Positions 6,778 to 59,603 of a DNA stretch of 64,000 bases are shown one piece after another. The notes beneath the pieces are model-generated. The model was not told the origin of the DNA. It saw only the letters and a list, made by a program, of their open reading frames with translations, and searched no databases. The stretch covers positions 40,585 through 104,584 of the IMG/VR virus record IMGVR_UViG_3300009500_000011, one strand, 5' to 3'. The position numbers and the translations under genes were made by a program. Numbering within the stretch: position 1 is the first letter of the stretch; each line of letters opens with the position of its first letter. Origin of the DNA: a virus (taxonomy: Duplodnaviria > Heunggongvirae > Uroviricota > Caudoviricetes).

Positions 6778-8253
6778 ATGAGCAGCACAGTTTATACTTG
6801 GGGTGGTTCATCATTTACTAGTCCCGATTTTATCACTTCTCAATTTATGTTATCATCATCAGATGGAAATACATATTTTTATGAACAAAATTATATGCTT
6901 TTTTTTCCTGTTACTTTTTCAAGTGAAGGTGCCCCTTATTATACGGGAAATGGGCAAGGAGTAACATTACCTGTTAATACCAGTTTATTAGTGTTAACGG
7001 GGTATGCTTCTTATATTACCGCTTTCGATGCTTCAATTTATCAAACAAGAGCAAATTCTTTTTTAAGTGACCCTACAAATATTTTAGATGCTGCAAATCA
7101 ACAACCTACCTCTTTGGTTACAAATTCAACTACAGCAGCACTTACTGCTAATGCAAATTTACAACAAGCATTACAGAATGCAACAGGTATATTGACAGAC
7201 GTACATTTAAATTTTGCAATGAAAGATATTATGAACTCTTGGCCTGGAGGTTCTTCTATCATAAGCATGATAAGTGGTTTTTTGGCAAATCATCAAAATT
7301 TAATTTTAGGTTCTCAGTTAAAAATTCAAAAATTAATTGATTTTAAACAAGCATTAATATCTCAATCTGTTCAAAATGCCAATAAACAAGTTGCCATTTC
7401 TGGACAATTAAATACTTGGCAAAATCAAGGTACTTTTACAGGTTTAGCTTCTGCTTTTCCAACTGTATCAACTTTAACATCTTCTTTTAGTGGACAAAAC
7501 ACTCAAATTTCCCAAAATTTAACTAAATTTATTCCAGGTTCTGCTGCTTCTGGTGATAGTACGATATCTTCTATATTTGGAAATGCAGGTTTAAATATAA
7601 ATAGTTTACCACCAATTTTAAATCCTATGGATAAATTTATCATAGATTTAGGAAATTTAAATACAAATAATGTCTCTTTTAATGGTTTTTCAAGTCTTTC
7701 CCAAGCAACAAATCACATTAATCAATTAGCAAATTTATTAAATAATATTCATGCAACAATGCCTGTAACTCCTCAAGGTGTTGTTAAAACTCCTGTTACA
7801 AATCCAGCAACAATTTATAGCACCGCAACACAATATGCAAATGCCCAAAATGGAATTACAACTACAGTAAGTGCTAGTGCTGCGGCTTTAGCAAAATTGG
7901 CAAACACTACAACTGTTATAGCAAGTTCTTCACCAACTTTAGGAACTAATGCGTCTATGGGCGGAACTTTAGCAAACAATCCTTCAATTTCTAATGTTCT
8001 TCCTTCAAGTTTGCCTCCAGTACCTGATTATAATATTACAACTTCTCCTGACCCTGAAATTGCTTCAACTCAAAATAACATAAATAATCAACAAGTTGCT
8101 GCAAATGCTACAACGACGACAATGATAGTTAGCGCAGGTGATTGTATAAACAACATTGCTGATGTTGTTCCTTTAAAACCAAGGTGTAAACCATTCAATG
8201 GAAGTTTAGGTGATTTTAATGGTTCTAATCAAATACCTTTAATTATTCCCTAA
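6778..8253 (+). CDS. Unknown virion protein, N/S/T/A-rich
   Basis: 491-aa ORF abutting the spike gene inside the baseplate operon; no motif recognised. Confidence 0.55.
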   Translation: MSSTVYTWGGSSFTSPDFITSQFMLSSSDGNTYFYEQNYMLFFPVTFSSEGAPYYTGNGQGVTLPVNTSLLVLTGYASYITAFDASIYQTRANSFLSDPTNILDAANQQPTSLVTNSTTAALTANANLQQALQNATGILTDVHLNFAMKDIMNSWPGGSSIISMISGFLANHQNLILGSQLKIQKLIDFKQALISQSVQNANKQVAISGQLNTWQNQGTFTGLASAFPTVSTLTSSFSGQNTQISQNLTKFIPGSAASGDSTISSIFGNAGLNINSLPPILNPMDKFIIDLGNLNTNNVSFNGFSSLSQATNHINQLANLLNNIHATMPVTPQGVVKTPVTNPATIYSTATQYANAQNGITTTVSASAAALAKLANTTTVIASSSPTLGTNASMGGTLANNPSISNVLPSSLPPVPDYNITTSPDPEIASTQNNINNQQVAANATTTTMIVSAGDCINNIADVVPLKPRCKPFNGSLGDFNGSNQIPLIIP

Positions 8254-8326
8254 AACCATCTATGATAAAATTATGAACATATTTCATATTGTGTAATGAG
8301 GATATGAAAATGTTTAAGGAAAAATT

Positions 8327-8803
8327 ATGTCAACAACGTTTCAATTAACAACGGCATCTGGACCAATTTCTGACCAAAGCGATGATATAGCGATAGATGC
8401 TATTGGGGCATTAGTTCCTATTACTGGTTTAGCAAAATTAGAACAAGATATTCTTAAAATATTAAGAACTGCAACAAACAATTTTTATAAAAATTATGAA
8501 ACAGAAATTGATTCCTTAATCGGCGGAAATTATAACGTTGATGAAATCAAACAAACTTTAGCAAACAATATTACAAATTCTTTAGTTTATTTGCAATATT
8601 TACAGCAGCAGCAACAAAAATATCAAATCTTAGATGCTGCTGAAGTTCTTGAAACTATCAATTCAATTGCTGTTACATATTTAGGTGATATTACTCCAAC
8701 AGGTACAAATTTAACAACTTATACTGTGGCCATTTCTGTAACAAATGCTGCCCAAAATACTGTAACAATAAGTACCACATCACAGGCTGGTAGGTTTGAT
8801 TAA
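8327..8803 (+). CDS. Baseplate wedge/sheath initiator (gp25/gpW-like)
   Basis: Size (158 aa), position just before baseplate J, and 'ITGLAKLEQDILKILRT' pattern. Confidence 0.65.
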   Translation: MSTTFQLTTASGPISDQSDDIAIDAIGALVPITGLAKLEQDILKILRTATNNFYKNYETEIDSLIGGNYNVDEIKQTLANNITNSLVYLQYLQQQQQKYQILDAAEVLETINSIAVTYLGDITPTGTNLTTYTVAISVTNAAQNTVTISTTSQAGRFD

Positions 8804-24054: not shown

Positions 24055-24080
24055 AATAAGGGCCTTAATTGGCCCTTATT
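24055..24080. terminator. Probable bidirectional intrinsic terminator
   Basis: Perfect inverted repeat AATAAGGGCC-ttaatt-GGCCCTTATT between convergent gene blocks, with A/T-rich flanks. Confidence 0.8.
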
Positions 24081-24789
24081 TCATTAGAAATTCTCTTATT
24101 TGAGAGTTTCTTTTTAATTTTTCTTTAGCTCTTTTAAGTAAAAGTTCAATTTCTTTTTCTGATTTTTGTAATTTAAAACTTATTTCTTTTAAATTGTATT
24201 TATCACCATTTGTCAAAATACCTGAGCGTAATAAAAATGTTATTCTTTCATTTTTTGGTAACGTATTAATTGCGCCCCATACATTATTTGGTAAATATTT
24301 TTTTTCAAATTCTTCATAAGTTGAATCATAAAAATTATTATTTTTAATAGAAACATCATCAGATTGAGAAGAATCAAAATTTCTTTGCAATTGTATAGGT
24401 TTCATTATTTCTTTGTATAATTTATTTATTTGTTCTTCTTTCGATTTATCTGTATTCCAAACAAAATTTCTTGCAATATTATTTGGAATATGAACAGGTA
24501 AATTTTTGCAATAGGTATCGAACATTGCCGATACAATATCCCAATGAATGAAAGATAGCAACTTTACATTTTTTTTAATATTGTATTTTTGAATACCTTG
24601 AATAAATCCTAAAATTGCGCTTTGATAAAGGTCCTCAATAGGAACATCTTCTTTAAATGCTTTAAAATATTGATTTACTAATTTCCAAATGTAACCTTCA
24701 TGACCGTATATCAATCTTTCTAATGCATATGAATTTTTGTTTTTTAAATATTCCTGAATGAGGACTTTTTCTTGTACCTCATGCAGCAT
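24076..24789 (-). CDS. Sigma70-family RNA polymerase sigma factor (regions 2 and 4)
   Basis: Region 2 'DLYQSAILGFIQGIQKYNIKKNVKLLSFIHW'; region 4 'LPKNERITFLLRSGI...YNLKEIS'. Confidence 0.85.
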   Translation of the reverse strand: MLHEVQEKVLIQEYLKNKNSYALERLIYGHEGYIWKLVNQYFKAFKEDVPIEDLYQSAILGFIQGIQKYNIKKNVKLLSFIHWDIVSAMFDTYCKNLPVHIPNNIARNFVWNTDKSKEEQINKLYKEIMKPIQLQRNFDSSQSDDVSIKNNNFYDSTYEEFEKKYLPNNVWGAINTLPKNERITFLLRSGILTNGDKYNLKEISFKLQKSEKEIELLLKRAKEKLKRNSQIREFLMK

Positions 24790-24792
24790 AAC

Positions 24793-25644
24793 TTATAACA
24801 ATTCTTTCCTTGGAACAGCCTTCTTTTGATTAAATGGGTCACGTAAATTTTTTATAAGAATTCGTTTAGCTTTTTTAAATGTTTTATCTACATCAATAAC
24901 GTCTAATTTTAATCTTTCAGAAATATCTTCAATTGAATATTTTGTACCATCTTCTAAACCAGTACGCATATTAAATATTTTGATTTCTTTAGATGTTAAT
25001 TTTTTTAGAGCAGAAGAAACCATTGGAGAAAATATTTCTTTAATGCTATCTTCAAAGGTTGGGTCAGCAATTTTTACGCCATTTTCATTATATTGAATTT
25101 CAAAATTATTTGAAGAACGGCCTTCTTTATTGCGAAAATCTTCTGTTAATGCATCCAAAGATTCGCCCTTCATTCCAATTTTAGCGATTCTTTTATTTTC
25201 TAAAGACTTTGGAGTTTGAGGACTTTTTTCATCAATTTTTTTAAAATGTATGGCTCTTAAAATATGTGCAGGAATATGAACAGGATGTGCATGATGCCAT
25301 GCTTCTTGCATCTGAGCATTTATTTTAGTGTGAGCATAAGTTAAAAATCTTAATGGTTGACCAAAATTTGGTGAATCTTCGTTATCCACTAACCTTGTCA
25401 AATCAAATTCTTGTGCGGCACGTATAAATCCTAATCTTGCTTGTTGTACAAGGTCTTCAAATTCTACTACCTTATTAAATTGTGTAAATGCTTTTGATGC
25501 TAATTGTTGAACATATGGATTGTGCGCTTCTAATAATTCTTGAAGGGCATAATTATTTCCATTTTCTTGATAATCACGTATTAATTCGCGTTCTAATTCT
25601 CTTGATATGTGTTTTGTTTTTTTTGTTTTAATTGTATTTGGCAT
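24793..25644 (-). CDS. Sigma70-family RNA polymerase sigma factor (regions 2 and 4)
   Basis: Region 2 'EDLVQQARLGFIRAAQEFD...RFLTYA'; region 4 'LTSKEIKIFNMRTGLEDGTKYSIEDIS'. Confidence 0.9.
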   Translation of the reverse strand: MPNTIKTKKTKHISRELERELIRDYQENGNNYALQELLEAHNPYVQQLASKAFTQFNKVVEFEDLVQQARLGFIRAAQEFDLTRLVDNEDSPNFGQPLRFLTYAHTKINAQMQEAWHHAHPVHIPAHILRAIHFKKIDEKSPQTPKSLENKRIAKIGMKGESLDALTEDFRNKEGRSSNNFEIQYNENGVKIADPTFEDSIKEIFSPMVSSALKKLTSKEIKIFNMRTGLEDGTKYSIEDISERLKLDVIDVDKTFKKAKRILIKNLRDPFNQKKAVPRKELL

Positions 25645-25701
25645 AAGTTTCCTTATTAGTAATGATTGCTATTCCTAGTTTACACGTTGTTAATTTGCTA
25701 T

Positions 25702-28251
25702 TCAAGTATCTTTTGTTTCTTTTTTATTGAATACACTTATAAAGTTGTTTACAGTTTCAAGTCCTTCAATTAAATATGATTCGTATTCTGGTTCATATTT
25801 TCCAAAAGCAAAGTATGGCTCGCCTTTAAATATTTTAGATGAAAATTGCATGTAAATTGATGAAAACATAACCCACCTTTGCTTTTCACCATCTAAGTTT
25901 GTTGCCGTCATAAAAGCCATATTATTTCCATTTTTATCAGGTTTTACAAATAAATCTTCTATAACTCCACAAGTTGCAAACTTATTTTTTTTCGCGACAA
26001 CATTTTTAAAACTCTCAAAATATTTTTTTACAGAATTAATATGTTTAATAATAGCATCTTCAAAAGGGAACCCAAAAACTTCTCTTTCAAATTTAAGTTT
26101 TTCATTCTCTTCCCAATCAACAACAACAATATCTATGTTTTTACGGCCTGCTTTTTTAGGTCCATCTTCTTCATCAAACATATCAATTGTTTCATAATCT
26201 GATTTTTTTGCAGCACCTTTAGCGATTAATATTTTGGCTAATGTTAATGCCCTGTTTGGAGATATATCATCAAAAGCACCAGATTTGACCAATGGTTCTA
26301 AAGCACGACGACTTACAATTCGCCAAGTTATATCACGACTCAAGAAATCATCTAACGATGTAAATGGTCCATGCTGTTCTCTATTTTCAACAATAGAAGC
26401 AGCAGCCTTTTCGCCCACACCTTTAATCATTTCTAATCCGCTAAATATACTGTTGGTTTCAGCATCAATAGAAAACTTTATATGTGATTTATTTATATTA
26501 GGTTTACGGATAGAGTAATTATTTTTTTGAATCGTTCTTATATAATCTTTAACTTTATCTTCTTTTAAAATATTATGTGTTAACAAAGATGTAAAAAATT
26601 CAAGAGGATAAAATGCTCTAAAAAAAGCGGTTTGATAGCTGATAAGAGAGTAAGATACGGCATGTGCTTTATTAAAACCATATCTTGCGAATGGCAAAAT
26701 TGTATTCCAAGCACCCAACGCTTGTTCGCGGGTTGCTCCATTTTTTACAGAATCTTCGACAAATTGCTTTTCCATTTCTTCAACGTAAGCAATTGTTTTA
26801 GGGTCCGTTCTTAATAATTCGGGCTTAATTTTTGTAAAATATTTACGAATTTTTTCTGCTGAAGCAAACGAACATCCAGTCATATTCATTACAATTCTTG
26901 AAATATCTTCTTGGAACACAGCAATACCCATAGAAGGCCCAAGAATTTCACTTAATTGTGGAGCAGGGAATGTAATTTTATCTCGACCGTGACGGCGCTC
27001 AACAAAACGCACATGTGCGCCTTTGGCTTTAGCATATTCGTGTGGCTCTGTGTCTTTATCTATAGGCATACCATCTTTATCTAAATGACAGTCCATTGCG
27101 CCGGGACGATAAAGTGATGTTATATAATATAAATCTGCAAATTCGGTGGGACCATAGGATTTAGCAAATTCAGTAATTCCTCTAGGTTCAAATTGAAATA
27201 TGCCTTCTGTTTTTCCTTCTGCAATGATATTAAATATAGGCTTAATATTTAGACATAATTTGTCTAAATCAATTAACTTAACATCTTGACCTTGTAGATT
27301 CTTTCTGCTAATAAAGGGTAATTTAAAATTTGTTGAGCAATCTTTGCCTTCTTCTTTACATGCACAGGGACTATCTGAATTTTCATCAAGATTATATCTC
27401 TGAACAACAAGTAAATTGGCATCTTCTAAAACTCTTAAAGTATTAAGACCAAGTAAATCAATTTTAATACCACCCATTGACCCTAATTCACTAACGCCTT
27501 GGCCTTCTGTCCATTCTGTGCATATTTCATCTTTACTTCGGCGAATAGGAAATGTTTGAGCGAATGGTTCTGGAAGAATTAAAACTCCAGCAGCATGTTG
27601 ACCTGCGTATTTTGGAAGTCCTAATAATGATTTGAAGTGAGAGAAAATATAAGGATATTTACGCTGAAAATCTTCAATATCTTCATTATTAAATTCAATA
27701 CCTTCATCATTATCTATATCATCATCGGTAGAAATTTCTTGGTCAATTTTAAGACCTAATTTTTTGGCAAGTTGACGAACTTCTTCAAGAGGAATAAGTC
27801 TTTCTCCGTCCTCATCTTTAAATAATCTTGTAATATCGTTTAACAATGATTTAAATTTGTATTTGCCATACGTCCCAATATTACATACTCTATCTTCACC
27901 ATATTTTTGAATTGCATAATCTTTAACAGATGCGTTATCTGCAAAGTCATTATCTATATCTGGGAGGGCAGATGGAGCCACCGGATAATGAAATGAAATT
28001 TTACCCGGAGACATAGAAGTTATACCAAGTTCAAAGGCTATTTGAGAATGGCATTCATTAACTGGACGCGCTGTAGAAATTTTTTCAATATGTATTGCTT
28101 GATAGGCTTTTAAAAAAGATTCAGGAATAAAGGAAGGGGCTTCTTCTAAAAGTTCTAATTCTTTCTTTATTCTGGGTGTTATTTCTAATTTAGCTTTTAC
28201 TAATTTTTTTAAAAGCTCAAACGATTTATTAATTGTTATTTGTGATGACAT
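25702..28251 (-). CDS. dnaE: DNA polymerase III alpha (DnaE), C-terminal subunit: palm Asp triad, thumb, fingers, HhH and OB
   Basis: Motifs PDIDNDF, GQHAAGV, KIDLLGL, GIFQFE, LYRPG, YGFNKAHA, IKGVG and 'KNGNNMAF'. ATG at 28251 is preferred over TTG at 28257. Confidence 0.93.
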   Translation of the reverse strand: MSSQITINKSFELLKKLVKAKLEITPRIKKELELLEEAPSFIPESFLKAYQAIHIEKISTARPVNECHSQIAFELGITSMSPGKISFHYPVAPSALPDIDNDFADNASVKDYAIQKYGEDRVCNIGTYGKYKFKSLLNDITRLFKDEDGERLIPLEEVRQLAKKLGLKIDQEISTDDDIDNDEGIEFNNEDIEDFQRKYPYIFSHFKSLLGLPKYAGQHAAGVLILPEPFAQTFPIRRSKDEICTEWTEGQGVSELGSMGGIKIDLLGLNTLRVLEDANLLVVQRYNLDENSDSPCACKEEGKDCSTNFKLPFISRKNLQGQDVKLIDLDKLCLNIKPIFNIIAEGKTEGIFQFEPRGITEFAKSYGPTEFADLYYITSLYRPGAMDCHLDKDGMPIDKDTEPHEYAKAKGAHVRFVERRHGRDKITFPAPQLSEILGPSMGIAVFQEDISRIVMNMTGCSFASAEKIRKYFTKIKPELLRTDPKTIAYVEEMEKQFVEDSVKNGATREQALGAWNTILPFARYGFNKAHAVSYSLISYQTAFFRAFYPLEFFTSLLTHNILKEDKVKDYIRTIQKNNYSIRKPNINKSHIKFSIDAETNSIFSGLEMIKGVGEKAAASIVENREQHGPFTSLDDFLSRDITWRIVSRRALEPLVKSGAFDDISPNRALTLAKILIAKGAAKKSDYETIDMFDEEDGPKKAGRKNIDIVVVDWEENEKLKFEREVFGFPFEDAIIKHINSVKKYFESFKNVVAKKNKFATCGVIEDLFVKPDKNGNNMAFMTATNLDGEKQRWVMFSSIYMQFSSKIFKGEPYFAFGKYEPEYESYLIEGLETVNNFISVFNKKETKDT

Positions 28252-29648
28252 TCGCAAGCCTTTAATATTTCTTCTTCATTTAATGACATTTTAGCAATTT
28301 CAAGTCCAAATGTAGGCATCATAATGCCTTTTGATTCATCAAGAAAACGCTCAAAATAAAGGTCAAATTCTATAGGATTTACATTAGTTATACCTAAACA
28401 ATAAGCAACTAAAGAACCCGAAGCACTTCCGCGTCCTGGCCCTACTGCTTGTTTTTGTCTAGCTGTGCCAACTAAATCTCCAACTACATTAAAGTAAGAA
28501 GCAAAACCCAATTTAGTTATTGTTTTAAGTTCTCTTTTTAATCGTGAAATGTATTCGGGTTTTGTGTGTAAACCTTTATTTATTAATCCTTTTAATGCAT
28601 TTTTTGTTAGAAAATCTTCTTGATTATCGTCATTGTTAGTTTCAAATGTTGGAAACTTTAATGATGTATCAAAAGGAAAATTTGTTATCATTGAACTTAT
28701 TTGGCGAGTATTTTTTATTGCTTCTGCTAAATATTTAAGTTCAACATCAGGCATATATTTTTGCCAAGATTTAAAAAGCATATCTTCGTTTTTAATATAC
28801 AAATCAACAAGCATATCATCATTCATAGAATAATCTTCTTGTCCTAATTGTCGAATTAAAGCCCTAGTTTCGTGGCCACCTTCTTCAACATAATGAGAAT
28901 CACAAGTAACAACCAATGGTGTTCCTGTGCTTTCAGATAATTTGATTAGTTCTACATTAACTGTTTTTTGTAAATTAATATCATTTAACTGAAGTTCTAA
29001 AAAGTAATTTCCTTTACCAAAAATACTATTAAATCTATTGATATTTTCAACAGCACCTAATGTATCTTGACCATCAATTAACTTGGCTATTCTTCCACCT
29101 AAACATGCTGAAAGAGCAATAACATCACCTTTGGTAACATATTTTTCAAGAACAGACCAATCAAGTCTTGGCTTGTAGTATGTACCATCAATGACCGCAG
29201 CATTATGCATTCTTATTAATGCAAGACAACCTTCCCAATTTTTAGCAAGTAAAATTAAATGATTATATTTACGCATTTTGTCGCGTATGATTGTTGCTTC
29301 TTCTACTTTGGTTTCAAGTTTAGATAAATTAGATTTAGATTTGGCATCTTTACTTTTATTTAAGATTTTAGCTTCTTCACGAAGTTCATCTAATTTTGCA
29401 TTTGCTACAAATACGCTTTTTTGGTCATCCACAAAATAGGCTTCCATGCCAAAGATACCTTTTATACCATATTTATCACATGCTTCTTTAAACATCAACC
29501 ATCCAGCAAGTGTGCCGTGGTCTGTGATAGATATTGAGTTCATGCCCAATTCCTTAGCGCGTTTAACAATGTCTTCGCAACGAGCTATTGAATCACCCAA
29601 ACTAAATTGTGAATGAACATGTAAGTTAGTAAAGATTTTATCTGTCAT
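28236..29648 (-). CDS. dnaE: DNA polymerase III alpha (DnaE), N-terminal subunit: PHP domain plus first palm segment
   Basis: PHP metal motifs HVHSQFS, ITDHG, GMEAY, NHLILL, SACL and CDSHY, followed by GPGRGSASGSLVAYCLGIT and FERFL. Confidence 0.93.
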   Translation of the reverse strand: MTDKIFTNLHVHSQFSLGDSIARCEDIVKRAKELGMNSISITDHGTLAGWLMFKEACDKYGIKGIFGMEAYFVDDQKSVFVANAKLDELREEAKILNKSKDAKSKSNLSKLETKVEEATIIRDKMRKYNHLILLAKNWEGCLALIRMHNAAVIDGTYYKPRLDWSVLEKYVTKGDVIALSACLGGRIAKLIDGQDTLGAVENINRFNSIFGKGNYFLELQLNDINLQKTVNVELIKLSESTGTPLVVTCDSHYVEEGGHETRALIRQLGQEDYSMNDDMLVDLYIKNEDMLFKSWQKYMPDVELKYLAEAIKNTRQISSMITNFPFDTSLKFPTFETNNDDNQEDFLTKNALKGLINKGLHTKPEYISRLKRELKTITKLGFASYFNVVGDLVGTARQKQAVGPGRGSASGSLVAYCLGITNVNPIEFDLYFERFLDESKGIMMPTFGLEIAKMSLNEEEILKACECHHK

Positions 29649-29676
29649 TTAATAAGCCTATATTAATACAAGCAGG

Positions 29677-30255
29677 CTAAGATTCATCATCAGCAGGAAC
29701 TAAAACTAAATCCATTTTATCTTCTTTTGCTTCCTGGGCTTTAATTTCTTTAAATTTAGCTTCTAACTCTTCATCGGTAAATATTTTATCACATTCATCA
29801 ATGTATAGTCCACCATTTAAATGACGCATTTCATGCCATACAGCCCTTGCCCAAAAATCCTTAAATTCGAATTCATAGAATTTTTTATTATGGTCTTGCC
29901 AACGTAATCTAACAGTATTTGGGCAAGTTACATAGCCACCTTTACCTGGCACGGAAAGACAACCTTCTATTTGTGAGTTAGTTTCATCCGAGAAAGATAA
30001 AATTTTAGGATTTACAAAATACAATGGAGGTTTGCCTTCTCCATTAGATAATGCAAACATTCGAACATTCTTACCTAATTGATTCGCAGCAATTCCTGCA
30101 ACACCCTTTTGAGAACAAATTTTTCCCATTAATTGTCCAAGTATAACAATTTCTGGGTCTTGAGGATTATCTATTGCTACACAACGTCTACGGAGAATTT
30201 TTTCAGAACGAGTTGAATTTTCATCATCTAGAGTTAAAATAGTAGTTTTTGCCAT
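29677..30255 (-). CDS. def: Peptide deformylase
   Basis: Motifs GIAANQLG, EGCLSVP and HEMRHLNG. Confidence 0.92.
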   Translation of the reverse strand: MAKTTILTLDDENSTRSEKILRRRCVAIDNPQDPEIVILGQLMGKICSQKGVAGIAANQLGKNVRMFALSNGEGKPPLYFVNPKILSFSDETNSQIEGCLSVPGKGGYVTCPNTVRLRWQDHNKKFYEFEFKDFWARAVWHEMRHLNGGLYIDECDKIFTDEELEAKFKEIKAQEAKEDKMDLVLVPADDES

Positions 30256-30262
30256 TTGTTAA

Positions 30263-30490
30263 TTATCTTCCATTAAAAATTTTAGCATAAAATTCAGCGA
30301 TTGTATATAACTCTTGCGGTGTTAAATCAATGTGGTGACCTCTACCGTTCTTAGTTACCATAACACGAATTTTATCTTTGTCAAGTAAAATTGTTTCAAA
30401 TTTTGATTTGTTTTCTTGGTCTACAAAAAACATAAATTTACTCAATTCCGAGTAAATCATTAACTTGTTAGAAGATTCTACAGTTTTCAT
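30263..30490 (-). CDS. Hypothetical protein
   Basis: ATG at 30490 overlaps the upstream TGA (ATGA coupling). Confidence 0.5.
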   Translation of the reverse strand: MKTVESSNKLMIYSELSKFMFFVDQENKSKFETILLDKDKIRVMVTKNGRGHHIDLTPQELYTIAEFYAKIFNGR

Positions 30491-30927
30491 CCTAATTCTA
30501 CTACCCAACTTTCTTTATATATCTCTTTTAATGGTACAAGCATCATTTGTGTGGCATTTCTATCGCCGCCCCAAACAGTCCTAAAATTACTATTTTGTAC
30601 ATATTCTTTTAATCTATCTTTACCCATTAGCAACATTTTTTCACCAACACATATTACCCAAAAATCTGCTTGACTAATCATTATTCCACTCGGGTCACCA
30701 TTTTTCTTAAAACATTCTATAGCTAAATTACCTGTATCAACTGCACGTAAATCATTCTTAACTTCTAGCGTTTTATTAATTTCGGGTATCTCTATATCAT
30801 AGAAAGGATTATAACCCTCTACTCTTTTAGATAAAGGATATACTTTTTGTATGGTAGTTAAAACTTTATCTTCACCCTTATGACCTAATACTATATCTTT
30901 TTTAAAATTATAATTTGATTTTCTCAT
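30487..30927 (-). CDS. PD-(D/E)xK family nuclease-like protein
   Basis: 'GHKGE...YDIEI...LEVKND...TGNLAIE' catalytic pattern. Confidence 0.65.
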   Translation of the reverse strand: MRKSNYNFKKDIVLGHKGEDKVLTTIQKVYPLSKRVEGYNPFYDIEIPEINKTLEVKNDLRAVDTGNLAIECFKKNGDPSGIMISQADFWVICVGEKMLLMGKDRLKEYVQNSNFRTVWGGDRNATQMMLVPLKEIYKESWVVELG

Positions 30928-39011: not shown

Positions 39012-41212
39012 TATTCACCTAATATCTTTGTTCCATCTTCTGATTTTGTTAATACAACTGCATTTTCAAATTCAGAAGCTAAATCTGGAAGATGTGTCAT
39101 AATAATCAATCTAGAGAAATCAGATGCTATAGATTTAATCGTATTTACAAATACTTGTCTTCCATCAGGGTCTAATGCGGATGCTGGTTCATCAAGTATC
39201 AAAAGTTCTAATTCTATACCTGCCCTACGGGCTAAAACTTTTGATAAAGCAAGTCTAATGGAAAGACTAACCCTAAATTTTTCTCCACCAGAGAAAGATT
39301 CAAATGAACGCCAGATTTTGCCATCATGAACTTCAATATCAAGAGTGTCTTTTTCATCACCTTTTTTATTAACTTCTGTGGTTTTAAAAGAAATAGCAAG
39401 TTGACCATGACTAATTTTACTTAAAAAGTAGTTTGTGGTTTCTTCAATTTCTGGCAAAACTGTAGAAATAATTGCCGCTGGAATACCTTTGCGTGAAAAA
39501 GCAATACAGATTTTATCCAATAAATTTATTTTATGTATTTTTACTTTAAGATTTTCTTCTAATTCTTCTTTTTTAGATTTTGATTCTAACGCTTGTTCAA
39601 ATTCAGATTCGACTTGAGTAATATAACGAATTAACTTGTCAACTTTTTCTCTAGATGTGTTAACATCTTTTTCTTCTTTTTCAGTTGAAATTTTTTCTCC
39701 AATAACTACAGGAACATCTTGTAGAGCTTCTTTAAGTTTAGTTATATTTTCAATTTTTTCATTTATGCTATTATTTAAATAATTAATTTCACGTTTTGCT
39801 GCTTCATACTGAGTTTGTAAAGAAGATTTATTTTTTAATATTGTTCTTAATTCGTCAATTTTAATTTTTTTATTAGTTATATCTAATTTTTTTTCAGATA
39901 ATTCTTCAGATAATTCTTTTAATTTTACCTTATGTTCTTCTAACTCTAAATGTTCACCTTTGCGAACTGCATCAATTATTTGCTGAATTCTAGCAACAGG
40001 AACTTCTTGTTCAATAATTCGAGCATTAATATCTTCAATTGTTTTTTTAACAGATTGAAGAATTATATTATGTTTTTTATGGTCAACTTCTTGCAAACAA
40101 GTTGGACATTCTGTAAATGTAACGTCTTGAAGTTTTTTTAATAATGTTTCGGATGTTCTTAATTCTGCTCTACTGTCATTTAATTTTTCTAAATCTTTTT
40201 TACGACTAGTTTCAAGCCTATCTATTAAGTTTGACGCTAAATTTATAAAATCTTCTTTATGTAAGTCTATTTTATTTTGTAAATTATTTTGAACATAATC
40301 TTCGCTTACGCGAAGTAATTTTTCTGCTTCGCTAATAATATTTTCTAATTTTATAATTGATTCGGATTGGTCATTAGAAGTAATAACAACAGATTTTGTG
40401 GTTTCAATTTTCGAAGATTCATCTTTTAATTGTTTTTCTAACGTCTGAATCATTTGTTCTATACGAGAATTATGCAATAATACTTCTTGCTTCCTAGATA
40501 ATTGAGAATCAATAAGCATATTTTCTTTTTGAATAGAATTTAATTTTTCTTGTCTTTTTTGTAAAAGATTACATTCATAATCAAAATATTCTTTAGATTG
40601 AATTAGTCGAGATTGAATTTCATCAATATCTTTTAGATTAATTGAATTATAAATATTTTCTTCAATTTTAATTTCTGCTTTTAAATTTCTTCTTTGTTCA
40701 TTGGCAATTTTTTCTAAACGTTCATATTGATTAAGGTCGAGAATTTCACCAATAATTTTTTTACGTTCATCTGGTTTTTGGCGTACAAAAAAATCAGCAT
40801 CTTCTTGCTTCAAGATTGCTGTCGAAAGGAAAGAATTATAAGATAAACCAAATAATTTATCAATTCTTTTTTGAGTTTCTGTCAGAAGTTCATTAGTCTT
40901 TACTCCATCTATAACGAGTTCAAGACTTGCACTTTTCCCGCGTTTTTTTGTGCGAATTATTTCAATTTCTTGGCCATTTAATCCAAAGGAAATACTTACT
41001 CCCATTTGATTAGCATTGCCGCGTATAGAATCATCAACATTAGAATTTCGAGTTACTCCGAAAATAGCAAAAGTTAATGCCTCTACAAAAAGACTAGTTT
41101 TCCCACTTCCATTTTCACCTTTAGCTAAAATAGGAGCAGGAGTTTTACGTAAATCAACTTTAGTATATTTATGATTAAAAAAGTTTTGAACTTCGATTAT
41201 GTCTATTCTCAT
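39011..41212 (-). CDS. sbcC: SbcC/Rad50-like SMC ATPase
   Basis: Walker A GENGSGKTS, coiled coil with CPTC hook, signature FSGGE, Walker B LILDEP. Confidence 0.92.
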   Translation of the reverse strand: MRIDIIEVQNFFNHKYTKVDLRKTPAPILAKGENGSGKTSLFVEALTFAIFGVTRNSNVDDSIRGNANQMGVSISFGLNGQEIEIIRTKKRGKSASLELVIDGVKTNELLTETQKRIDKLFGLSYNSFLSTAILKQEDADFFVRQKPDERKKIIGEILDLNQYERLEKIANEQRRNLKAEIKIEENIYNSINLKDIDEIQSRLIQSKEYFDYECNLLQKRQEKLNSIQKENMLIDSQLSRKQEVLLHNSRIEQMIQTLEKQLKDESSKIETTKSVVITSNDQSESIIKLENIISEAEKLLRVSEDYVQNNLQNKIDLHKEDFINLASNLIDRLETSRKKDLEKLNDSRAELRTSETLLKKLQDVTFTECPTCLQEVDHKKHNIILQSVKKTIEDINARIIEQEVPVARIQQIIDAVRKGEHLELEEHKVKLKELSEELSEKKLDITNKKIKIDELRTILKNKSSLQTQYEAAKREINYLNNSINEKIENITKLKEALQDVPVVIGEKISTEKEEKDVNTSREKVDKLIRYITQVESEFEQALESKSKKEELEENLKVKIHKINLLDKICIAFSRKGIPAAIISTVLPEIEETTNYFLSKISHGQLAISFKTTEVNKKGDEKDTLDIEVHDGKIWRSFESFSGGEKFRVSLSIRLALSKVLARRAGIELELLILDEPASALDPDGRQVFVNTIKSIASDFSRLIIMTHLPDLASEFENAVVLTKSEDGTKILGE

Positions 41213-58993: not shown

Positions 58994-59603
58994 TTATTAT
59001 TTTGTATTTGATTTAGAAACTTTAGGTTTAAATCAAAGAATTCATCAAGTTATCGAGATTGGTGGAGTTTTGGTCGAGGGTGATACTTTAGAATTAGTTA
59101 TGGACCCTTTTAGACAACTTGTTAAACCACAATTTCCGGTTGCTGTTGATGATAGGGCGCTTAAAGTTAACAATCTAACATTAGATGAAATATACAAACA
59201 TGGCGTTACTCAGCTAGAATCTTTAATGATGTTGACGGAGTGGTTAAAGAGTTATTCGGCAAATACAATGCAAATAGAACCTGTTTGTAATAATAAAACG
59301 TTTGATATTCCTCGGTTAGAACAAATGTATTTAGATAATGGATTAAATTTGCCGTGGCATTATGCTCATAAATGGGATGTAAAAGATATGGCACGGGATT
59401 TTAGTTTGCCTTTAGAAAAAATAAGTTTAGAAACTCTTTGTAATTATTTTAATGTACCATATGTAAATGGTCATTCAGCAGTTAATGACGCGGTTATGAC
59501 GGCTTATAATTTTATTAAATTAGAAAAAATTCGCCGAGCAGTAGGTAGTGTTCTTCACGAAGCACCTTTATTTATAGAATTCATTAATAATTTAAAGCAA
59601 TAG
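58980..59603 (+). CDS. DEDDh 3'-5' exonuclease (DnaQ/epsilon-like)
   Basis: Exo I FDLETLG, Exo II NNKTFD, Exo III HSAVND. Confidence 0.88.
   Translation: MYNPNYYFVFDLETLGLNQRIHQVIEIGGVLVEGDTLELVMDPFRQLVKPQFPVAVDDRALKVNNLTLDEIYKHGVTQLESLMMLTEWLKSYSANTMQIEPVCNNKTFDIPRLEQMYLDNGLNLPWHYAHKWDVKDMARDFSLPLEKISLETLCNYFNVPYVNGHSAVNDAVMTAYNFIKLEKIRRAVGSVLHEAPLFIEFINNLKQ

Follow-up and report, generated by a model that had tools for sequence, protein, structure and literature searches.

A phage DnaE encoded by two genes that meet in a duplicated palm segment and divide the active-site residues between them

In a 64,000-nucleotide stretch of an uncultured member of the Caudoviricetes (the window; positions 40,585 to 104,584 of the 168.6-kb IMG/VR record IMGVR_UViG_3300009500_000011, estimated to be 80% complete and with a GC content of about 31%), the C-family DNA polymerase III alpha subunit, DnaE, is encoded by two genes. 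PHP and the beginning of the palm are on the N subunit, the catalytic palm and the remaining domains on the C subunit. The break falls within the palm, about 100 amino acids of which are present in both proteins, and each catalytic function is retained in exactly one of the two copies, where it is invariant. A preliminary description of the region had proposed such a two-gene DnaE without an intein; both open reading frames lie where it placed them, as do FERFL (28341-28355) and PDIDNDF (27943-27963) on either side of the break, and its other coordinates were likewise correct.

The full domain set of single-chain DnaE1/Pol III alpha (Thermus aquaticus 2HPI/3E0D, Mycobacterium tuberculosis 7PU7, Escherichia coli 2HNH) is matched across the two phage proteins. 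Pfam searches placed PHP (E 3.6e-39) and DNA_pol3_alpha positions 9-107 (E 5.9e-31) on the N subunit, and DNA_pol3_alpha positions 23-260 (22-260 in another run), the finger domain and HHH_6 on the C subunit. Taken over both proteins, the palm, finger and HHH_6 matches that identify a C-family DnaE all lie above their curated cut-offs, with 108.5 and 80.1 bits for DNA_pol3_alpha (curated cut-off 23.9), 97.6 for the finger domain and 88.0 for HHH_6. An AlphaFold2 (AF2) model of the N subunit alone, with a predicted local distance difference test score (pLDDT) of 86.8, resembles the T. aquaticus (Taq), E. coli and M. tuberculosis enzymes (VIA Z 35-36), and its residues 1-324 align to the PHP-only chimera 4gx8 (Z 32); the model of the C subunit alone (pLDDT 83.6) matches Pol III alpha structures with VIA Z scores of 21-23. 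The phage enzyme shares with single-chain DnaE1 the nine PHP ligands, the catalytic Asp triad, the K553 equivalent, the G-S motif, the R390 equivalent and the steric-gate His. It differs in being made of two polypeptides, in the palm duplication and in a 42-amino-acid Cys-rich insert, and identity does not exceed 39%.

Around 85 positions of the DNA_pol3_alpha profile occur twice, once in the N tail and once in the C head. Pairwise BLASTP between these segments gives 23% identity with an E value of 0.016, which is weak by itself; the homology nevertheless holds, because three other comparisons agree. When the C protein is compared by tblastn with unsplit phage DnaEs, the match starts at residue 23-27, in a stretch of those DnaEs that the N protein also matches; hhalign of a C-head profile against the canonical segment gives an E value of 5.7e-6; and a three-way alignment puts the N copy, the C copy and the canonical segment in register. 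The duplication is also longer than the preliminary description had it, and reciprocal, since the N tail contains a dead version of the catalytic Asp strand, P445-T-F-G-L449. In a phmmer alignment to Taq 2hpi, PTFGL falls on P-D463-I-D465, and its F447 and G448 are found in 23 of 23 sequences; tblastn alignments of the N protein to canonical phage DnaEs extend through PTFGL and the following helix. An origin through partial duplication is plausible. Hidden Markov model (HMM) and hhalign scores of the C head against the N copy and against canonical segments were indistinguishable; the head is as far from the one as from the other, and the scores therefore single out neither as its source.

Many metagenomic relatives carry DnaE pairs broken at the same protein site. 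The split is seen again in about 30 protein clusters (45-71% identity) and at five additional loci, designated L003 to L007. Twenty-two N halves of 450-506 amino acids (47-71% identity) have a common tail composed of FERFL-x3-K, P-T-F-G-L and C-x-C-H; twelve C halves of 812-848 amino acids (45-65% identity), together with one 99%-identical copy, all share the head; and a search for longer proteins added four N halves enlarged by inteins. Residue counts per alignment column were made over 23 N and 13 C sequences of this clade (Table 1).

Table 1. Counterparts of E. coli DnaE active-site residues in the two phage subunits, with the number of clade sequences that carry them
E. coli residue	N subunit	C subunit
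G363-S364	G407-S408, 23/23	V/I/L/Y64, N65, 13/13
R390	R434, 23/23	Y89, 13/13
R396	K/R440, 23/23	no equivalent
D401, D403	T/S/N446, G448, 23/23	D98, D100, 13/13
D405	variable	D102, 13/13
K553, D555	absent	K263, D265, 13/13

The three catalytic Asp residues, whose roles in E. coli DnaE (D401, D403, D555) are described in PMC3919608, and the equivalent of D405 are all in the C subunit. On neither chain does a G-S turn with an R390 equivalent accompany the Asp triad. The division of the active site anticipated in the preliminary description was confirmed across the clade, with G407, S408, R434 and K440 confined to the N subunit (23/23) and the Asp triad and K263 to the C subunit (13/13), and in none of the 23 N and 13 C homologs were the Ser and Arg restored in the C copy or the Asp in the N copy. 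Its residue matching required one amendment: the catalytic G-S aligns to V64-N65 of the C head, whereas S69, which is conserved, pairs with S412, the second Ser.

The same description had called the duplicated palm segment decayed, and here only the duplication stands. The mean frequency of the commonest residue is 0.73 in the N copy against 0.68 over the whole N protein, of which this copy is the best-conserved part, and 0.67 in the C head against 0.66 over the whole C protein. Since each copy is at least as conserved as the protein that carries it, neither is decaying by this measure, and both are evidently under purifying selection.

No fused form of the clade was present among 5.8 billion protein clusters, the next relatives being canonical DnaEs of 1100-1200 amino acids with at most 39% identity. 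An exhaustive HMMER search resolved the clade into about six clusters at 50% identity, after which the bit score fell from 687 to 379. Those shorter matches within the HMMER top 150 that were inspected as candidates for other split clades were fragments of canonical DnaE with GRGS and PDxD on one chain. Among cultured relatives, the best matches in phage records had at most 36% identity and were unsplit; the C head had no tblastn match in 50,697 phage records. A peptide-pattern scan of IMG/VR gave no match, and a back-translated FHYP[VI]-x6-DxDxD scan of the same database found one other record, the contig of L007. Bacterial and archaeal species genomes gave matches to canonical DnaE only, at 28-30% identity and from residue 95 onward. 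Two short proteins with PHP and early-palm DnaE sequence, P0046 (391 amino acids, Clostridium cylindrosporum, 501-kb contig) and P0096 (475 amino acids, Anaerostipes caccae, 361-kb contig), sit inside long bacterial contigs with 36-38% identity to the N subunit; these may be pseudogenes or other split forms.

Four of the five further loci keep the gene order of the window, with peptide deformylase, N, C and a sigma-like gene. The N and C genes overlap by 7, 19 and 25 nucleotides among L003, L004 and L007; at L006 the junction reads TAA-TAA-GTG, with N and C in the same frame; and at L005 the genes downstream of N are unrelated ones, with no C homolog within 11.6 kb. In this last locus a 245-amino-acid protein without a Pfam match (7860-8597) comes after N, followed by a phage metallopeptidase and a DnaB-like helicase. 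Judged by the sequences of the clade, the split is an old, fixed state.

In four of the five adjacent pairs (the window, L003, L004 and L007), the ATG of the C gene is embedded in the codon of the second tail Cys, Cys467 in the window, and this layout therefore suggests translational coupling of the two genes. Coupling of this kind is what subunits produced in equal amounts would be expected to show. The C reading frame of the window first opens with TTG at 28257, and its likely start is the ATG at 28251, which has AAGG 8-11 nucleotides upstream.

Inteins interrupt some of the relatives. Four of the five N-half inteins lie between GRG and S408 (P0014, P0241, P0243, P0244) and one between KPR and C in the PHP domain (P0242); the two C-half inteins follow YGFNK (before S) and KYRG (before SHAAG) in P0128 and P0132, both of these being other core motifs, and none is in the head. 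Because the N inteins target GRG-S and no intein sits in the dead halves, their placement offers circumstantial evidence that the N copy has a functional core site in its G-S turn. At L006 both subunits carry inteins, and an HNH_3/AP2 endonuclease gene lies just upstream.

We consider it rather likely that the two proteins constitute an obligate heterodimeric DnaE with one composite active site. The N subunit would contribute the PHP exonuclease together with the opening half of the Pol-beta-like palm, comprising the G-S turn, R434 and K440, the equivalents of which hold the triphosphate of the deoxynucleoside triphosphate in single-chain DnaE. The C subunit would give the Asp triad, K263, the thumb, the fingers, HhH and OB, and so all of the DNA-binding domains, along with the steric-gate His (H530), which is located on this chain. 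Such an enzyme could have arisen through a tandem duplication of a segment that starts with the helix preceding G-S and ends with the one following strand 2; in the Pol-beta-like fold of C-family enzymes, the G-S motif lies about 40 residues away from this strand, on which the first two Asp are found (PMC11646218). After that event the upstream G-S segment and the downstream Asp strand would each have been contiguous with the rest of the enzyme, with redundant inner halves between them. The distribution of residues fits such a course of events exactly: all catalytic residues are retained in the outer halves (N 366-440; C from residue 97), which would make up the single working active site, and the inner halves (N tail 441-470; C head 1-96) have lost theirs, are conserved nonetheless and would most likely be a docking interface. 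From the distribution of conserved residues over the two chains we infer that the heterodimer forms, that its site is composite and that the inner halves dock. The AF2 models fit segments that fold only on a partner, since the N tail 441-470 has low pLDDT in the model of N alone, as do loops 65-67 and 87-98 of the C head, which stand in the places of the G-S turn and FERFL; the helices of the head are modelled with confidence.

Also in keeping with a working two-subunit enzyme, searches of the phage record for PolA and PolB (PF00136 among them) gave no match, and the split DnaE is by these sequence searches the only recognisable DNA polymerase of the phage.

Several points weigh against a composite site. 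The record is only about 80% complete, and another polymerase is possible. In the AF2 model of the C subunit alone, the chain forms a complete palm-to-OB body, and its matches to Pol III alpha begin at residues 22-45, in the head. Should the head fill the usual place of the palm in cis, a G-S segment supplied in trans would need the head to be elsewhere. A remodelled nucleotide site in cis could be made up of N65, S69, H88 and Y89, all of them invariant in the head. Covariation could be followed over only nine N/C pairs, which is too few, and the tail His compared with the head Cys/His gave no clear pattern, L003 being the only pair without both.

Some of these features can be read as a self-sufficient polymerase made of the C subunit, in which N65, S69, H88 and Y89 would be joined by finger residues in a remodelled head site, and the N subunit, with all nine PHP ligands, would be a separate PHP proofreader whose palm fragment serves for docking or folding only. 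The conservation of the head and the completeness of the model of C alone speak for such a polymerase, but in all 13 sequences the head is without a G-S turn and without either Arg equivalent, and its loops have pLDDT values below 50 at the would-be site. The N copy, in turn, keeps precisely those residues invariant over 23 sequences and is better conserved than any other part of its protein, which is unexpected for a mere docking piece, and it is the G-S of this copy that inteins target. We regard a self-sufficient C subunit as unlikely.

The heterodimer with a composite site can be pictured more specifically, in a form that we put forward only tentatively. The dead inner halves may fold across the two chains into a chimeric pseudo-palm, perhaps with a metal, bound by C465, C467 and H88, to hold it, while the true site would combine the G-S, Arg and Lys of the N subunit with the Asp triad of the C subunit. 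The duplication would in this way have furnished a built-in heterodimerisation domain that made gene fission tolerable.

It is very improbable that the two genes still yield a single polypeptide, be it through splicing of the RNA, trans-splicing of the proteins, read-through of the stop or programmed -1 frameshifting. In the window and in L003, L004 and L007 the C frame is indeed shifted by -1 from that of N, but at L006 it is in frame behind TAA TAA, at L005 the genes are unlinked, and the junctions have no shared slippery site and do not qualify as a dnaX-like frameshift. Rfam searches of 25000-30500 at a permissive threshold gave no match, which argues against an intron, and Pfam detected neither a Hint nor an intein domain in the N tail and the C head, which are instead palm homologs. 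In a fusion, moreover, the tandem duplication would be present in full, and the billions of clusters searched included no protein of that kind. All sequence-level checks that the preliminary description proposed turned out in its favour: of the alternatives it named, a spliced or frameshifted single polypeptide and an assembly error, no sign was found, and nothing points to a read-through product, an intein or an intron either. Because the junctions differ among loci and the L005 genes are unlinked, assembly error and a conserved frameshift or read-through are excluded. One frame change does separate the two reading frames of the window, but it is barely conceivable that the split reflects faulty sequencing or assembly or the decay of a pseudogene, given that it is found in independent JGI, ENA and Logan assemblies with differing junction sequences and that both reading frames are uninterrupted and conserved along their whole length.

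In the literature, the nearest precedent is a 'minimal' Pol III alpha that is split in group 2.2 (T4-like) jumbo phages (Iyer et al. 2021, Viruses 13:63, PMC7824862), in which an N-terminal NTP-binding protein and a C-terminal protein binding Mg2+ and template DNA are predicted to reconstitute one enzyme. That minimal version lacks PHP and the other DnaE domains, its genes lie far apart, and it occurs beside a family B polymerase. Matched by topology, the two systems share the same break in the fold, with NTP- and Mg-binding subdomains on separate proteins. The phage described here differs in keeping a full DnaE including PHP, in its overlapping genes, in having no detected PolB or PolA and in being broken within a duplicated module. 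Our literature search on intein-free splits of full-length DnaE found nothing beyond that report.

Two other systems invite comparison. Split-intein DnaE of cyanobacteria and other 'fractured genes' (Dassa et al. 2009, PMC2677866) likewise have dnaE in two or more genes, in microbes and in phages, but there each half bears a fragment of a split intein, ligation joins the halves into a single chain, and a homing endonuclease gene often separates their genes. The phage break is without an intein fragment, its N tail and C head align to palm, and the chain could not be rejoined in that manner. The best functional analogy is the ribonucleotide reductase pair NrdA-a/NrdA-b of Aeromonas phage Aeh1, an essential enzyme that mobE splits at the DNA level and that functions as separate polypeptides, with extra tails at the break that are required for assembly and activity (Crona et al. 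2011, PMC3045599). The Aeh1 tails are new sequence from an endonuclease insertion, and mobE still lies between the genes, whereas the extra segments of the phage DnaE are diverged copies of its own catalytic module, and its overlapping genes leave no endonuclease gene at the break.

The C-family polymerases that replicate genomes are taken to have a catalytic subunit of one chain, and in this clade a full-size DnaE appears to carry its nucleotide- and metal-binding elements on different proteins. If the composite site is real, the pair would be a natural split-enzyme version of a replicase and would show clearly how duplication and complementary loss can divide a gene; it would also offer a testable system for the assembly of a Pol-beta-like palm, one that could guide engineered split polymerases. 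For annotation, the consequence is that pipelines will name one gene "PHP protein" and the other a truncated DnaE, or merge both as a frameshift.

The positions of the genes, domains and motifs are collected in Table 2.

Table 2. Features of the split dnaE locus (positions are those of the window)
Feature	Position	Strand	Basis or remarks
DnaE N subunit gene	28236..29648	(-)	470 amino acids; PHP and first palm part, conserved tail at end
DnaE C subunit gene	25702..28251	(-)	849 amino acids from ATG 28251; C palm copy, catalytic palm, thumb, fingers, HhH, OB
N/C gene overlap	28236..28251	(-)	16 nucleotides; C-gene ATG is the last base of codon 466 plus TG of Cys467
PHP domain, N residues 1-324	28677..29648	(-)	nine metal ligands all present
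N copy of duplicated palm module, residues 366-470	28239..28553	(-)	three-way alignment
GRGS 405-408, G-S nucleotide-binding motif, only in N subunit	28425..28436	(-)	G407, S408 23/23; intein insertion site in relatives
FERFLDESK 432-440	28329..28355	(-)	R434 = E. coli R390, K440 = R396; alignments
PTFGL 445-449, dead copy of catalytic P-D-x-D strand	28302..28316	(-)	T446, G448 align to Taq D463, D465
CECHH tail motif 465-469	28242..28256	(-)	C465, C467 invariant
C copy of duplicated palm module (head), residues 1-96	27964..28251	(-)	alignment, conservation, residue counts
NECHS in C head, standing where SASGS would be	28045-28059	(-)	alignment
FHYPV in C head, standing where FERFL would be	27979-27993	(-)	alignment
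PDIDNDF 97-103	27943..27963	(-)	D98, D100, D102 = E. coli D401, D403, D405
K263-I-D265, E. coli K553 and D555 (third catalytic Asp)	27457..27465	(-)	aligned to Taq K-M-D-F-L-G-L; 13/13
Cys-rich insert, invariant C296, C298, C305, C333	27253..27366	(-)	no Taq counterpart for query 285-326
IDMF 689-692, clamp-binding-like motif	26176..26187	(-)	aligns to Taq stretch ending GLF
C-terminal OB fold, residues 754-841	25729..25992	(-)	VIA Z about 10 to SSB and PriB OB folds

All nine ligands of the PHP metal site, a nine-residue site described in PMC3919608, are present in the N subunit (H10, H12, D19, H44, E69, H130, C182, D250 and H252), and its PHP domain is predicted to be an intact proofreading exonuclease. 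A DnaQ-like DEDDh exonuclease is encoded elsewhere in the window, at 59004-59507 (+) (Pfam RNase_T 1.3e-13, DEDDh_C), and might be a second proofreader besides PHP.

The Cys-rich insert of the C subunit spans about 42 amino acids between palm and fingers and is modelled by AF2 with pLDDT values of 86-96. The preliminary description had proposed that Cys inserts of the C subunit might form a metal clasp with the CECHH tail of the N subunit. As the insert has four invariant Cys of its own, enough for such a purpose, it may instead form a separate structural site for zinc or another metal. The clamp-binding-like IDMF noted in the preliminary description is present, and the stretch of Taq to which it aligns is one that we take to be the position of the internal clamp-binding motif (E. 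coli QADMF); the motif itself, in the form xD[IM]F, is retained by just 7 of the 13 C sequences of the clade. A search of the phage record for DnaN gave no match.

Directly upstream of the N gene lies a peptide deformylase gene (29677-30255, minus strand), a neighbour kept in L003-L007. Two tandem sigma-70-like genes with region 2 matches (24076-25644, minus strand) follow directly downstream of the C gene, and a sigma-like gene stands after the C gene in L003, L004 and L007 as well.

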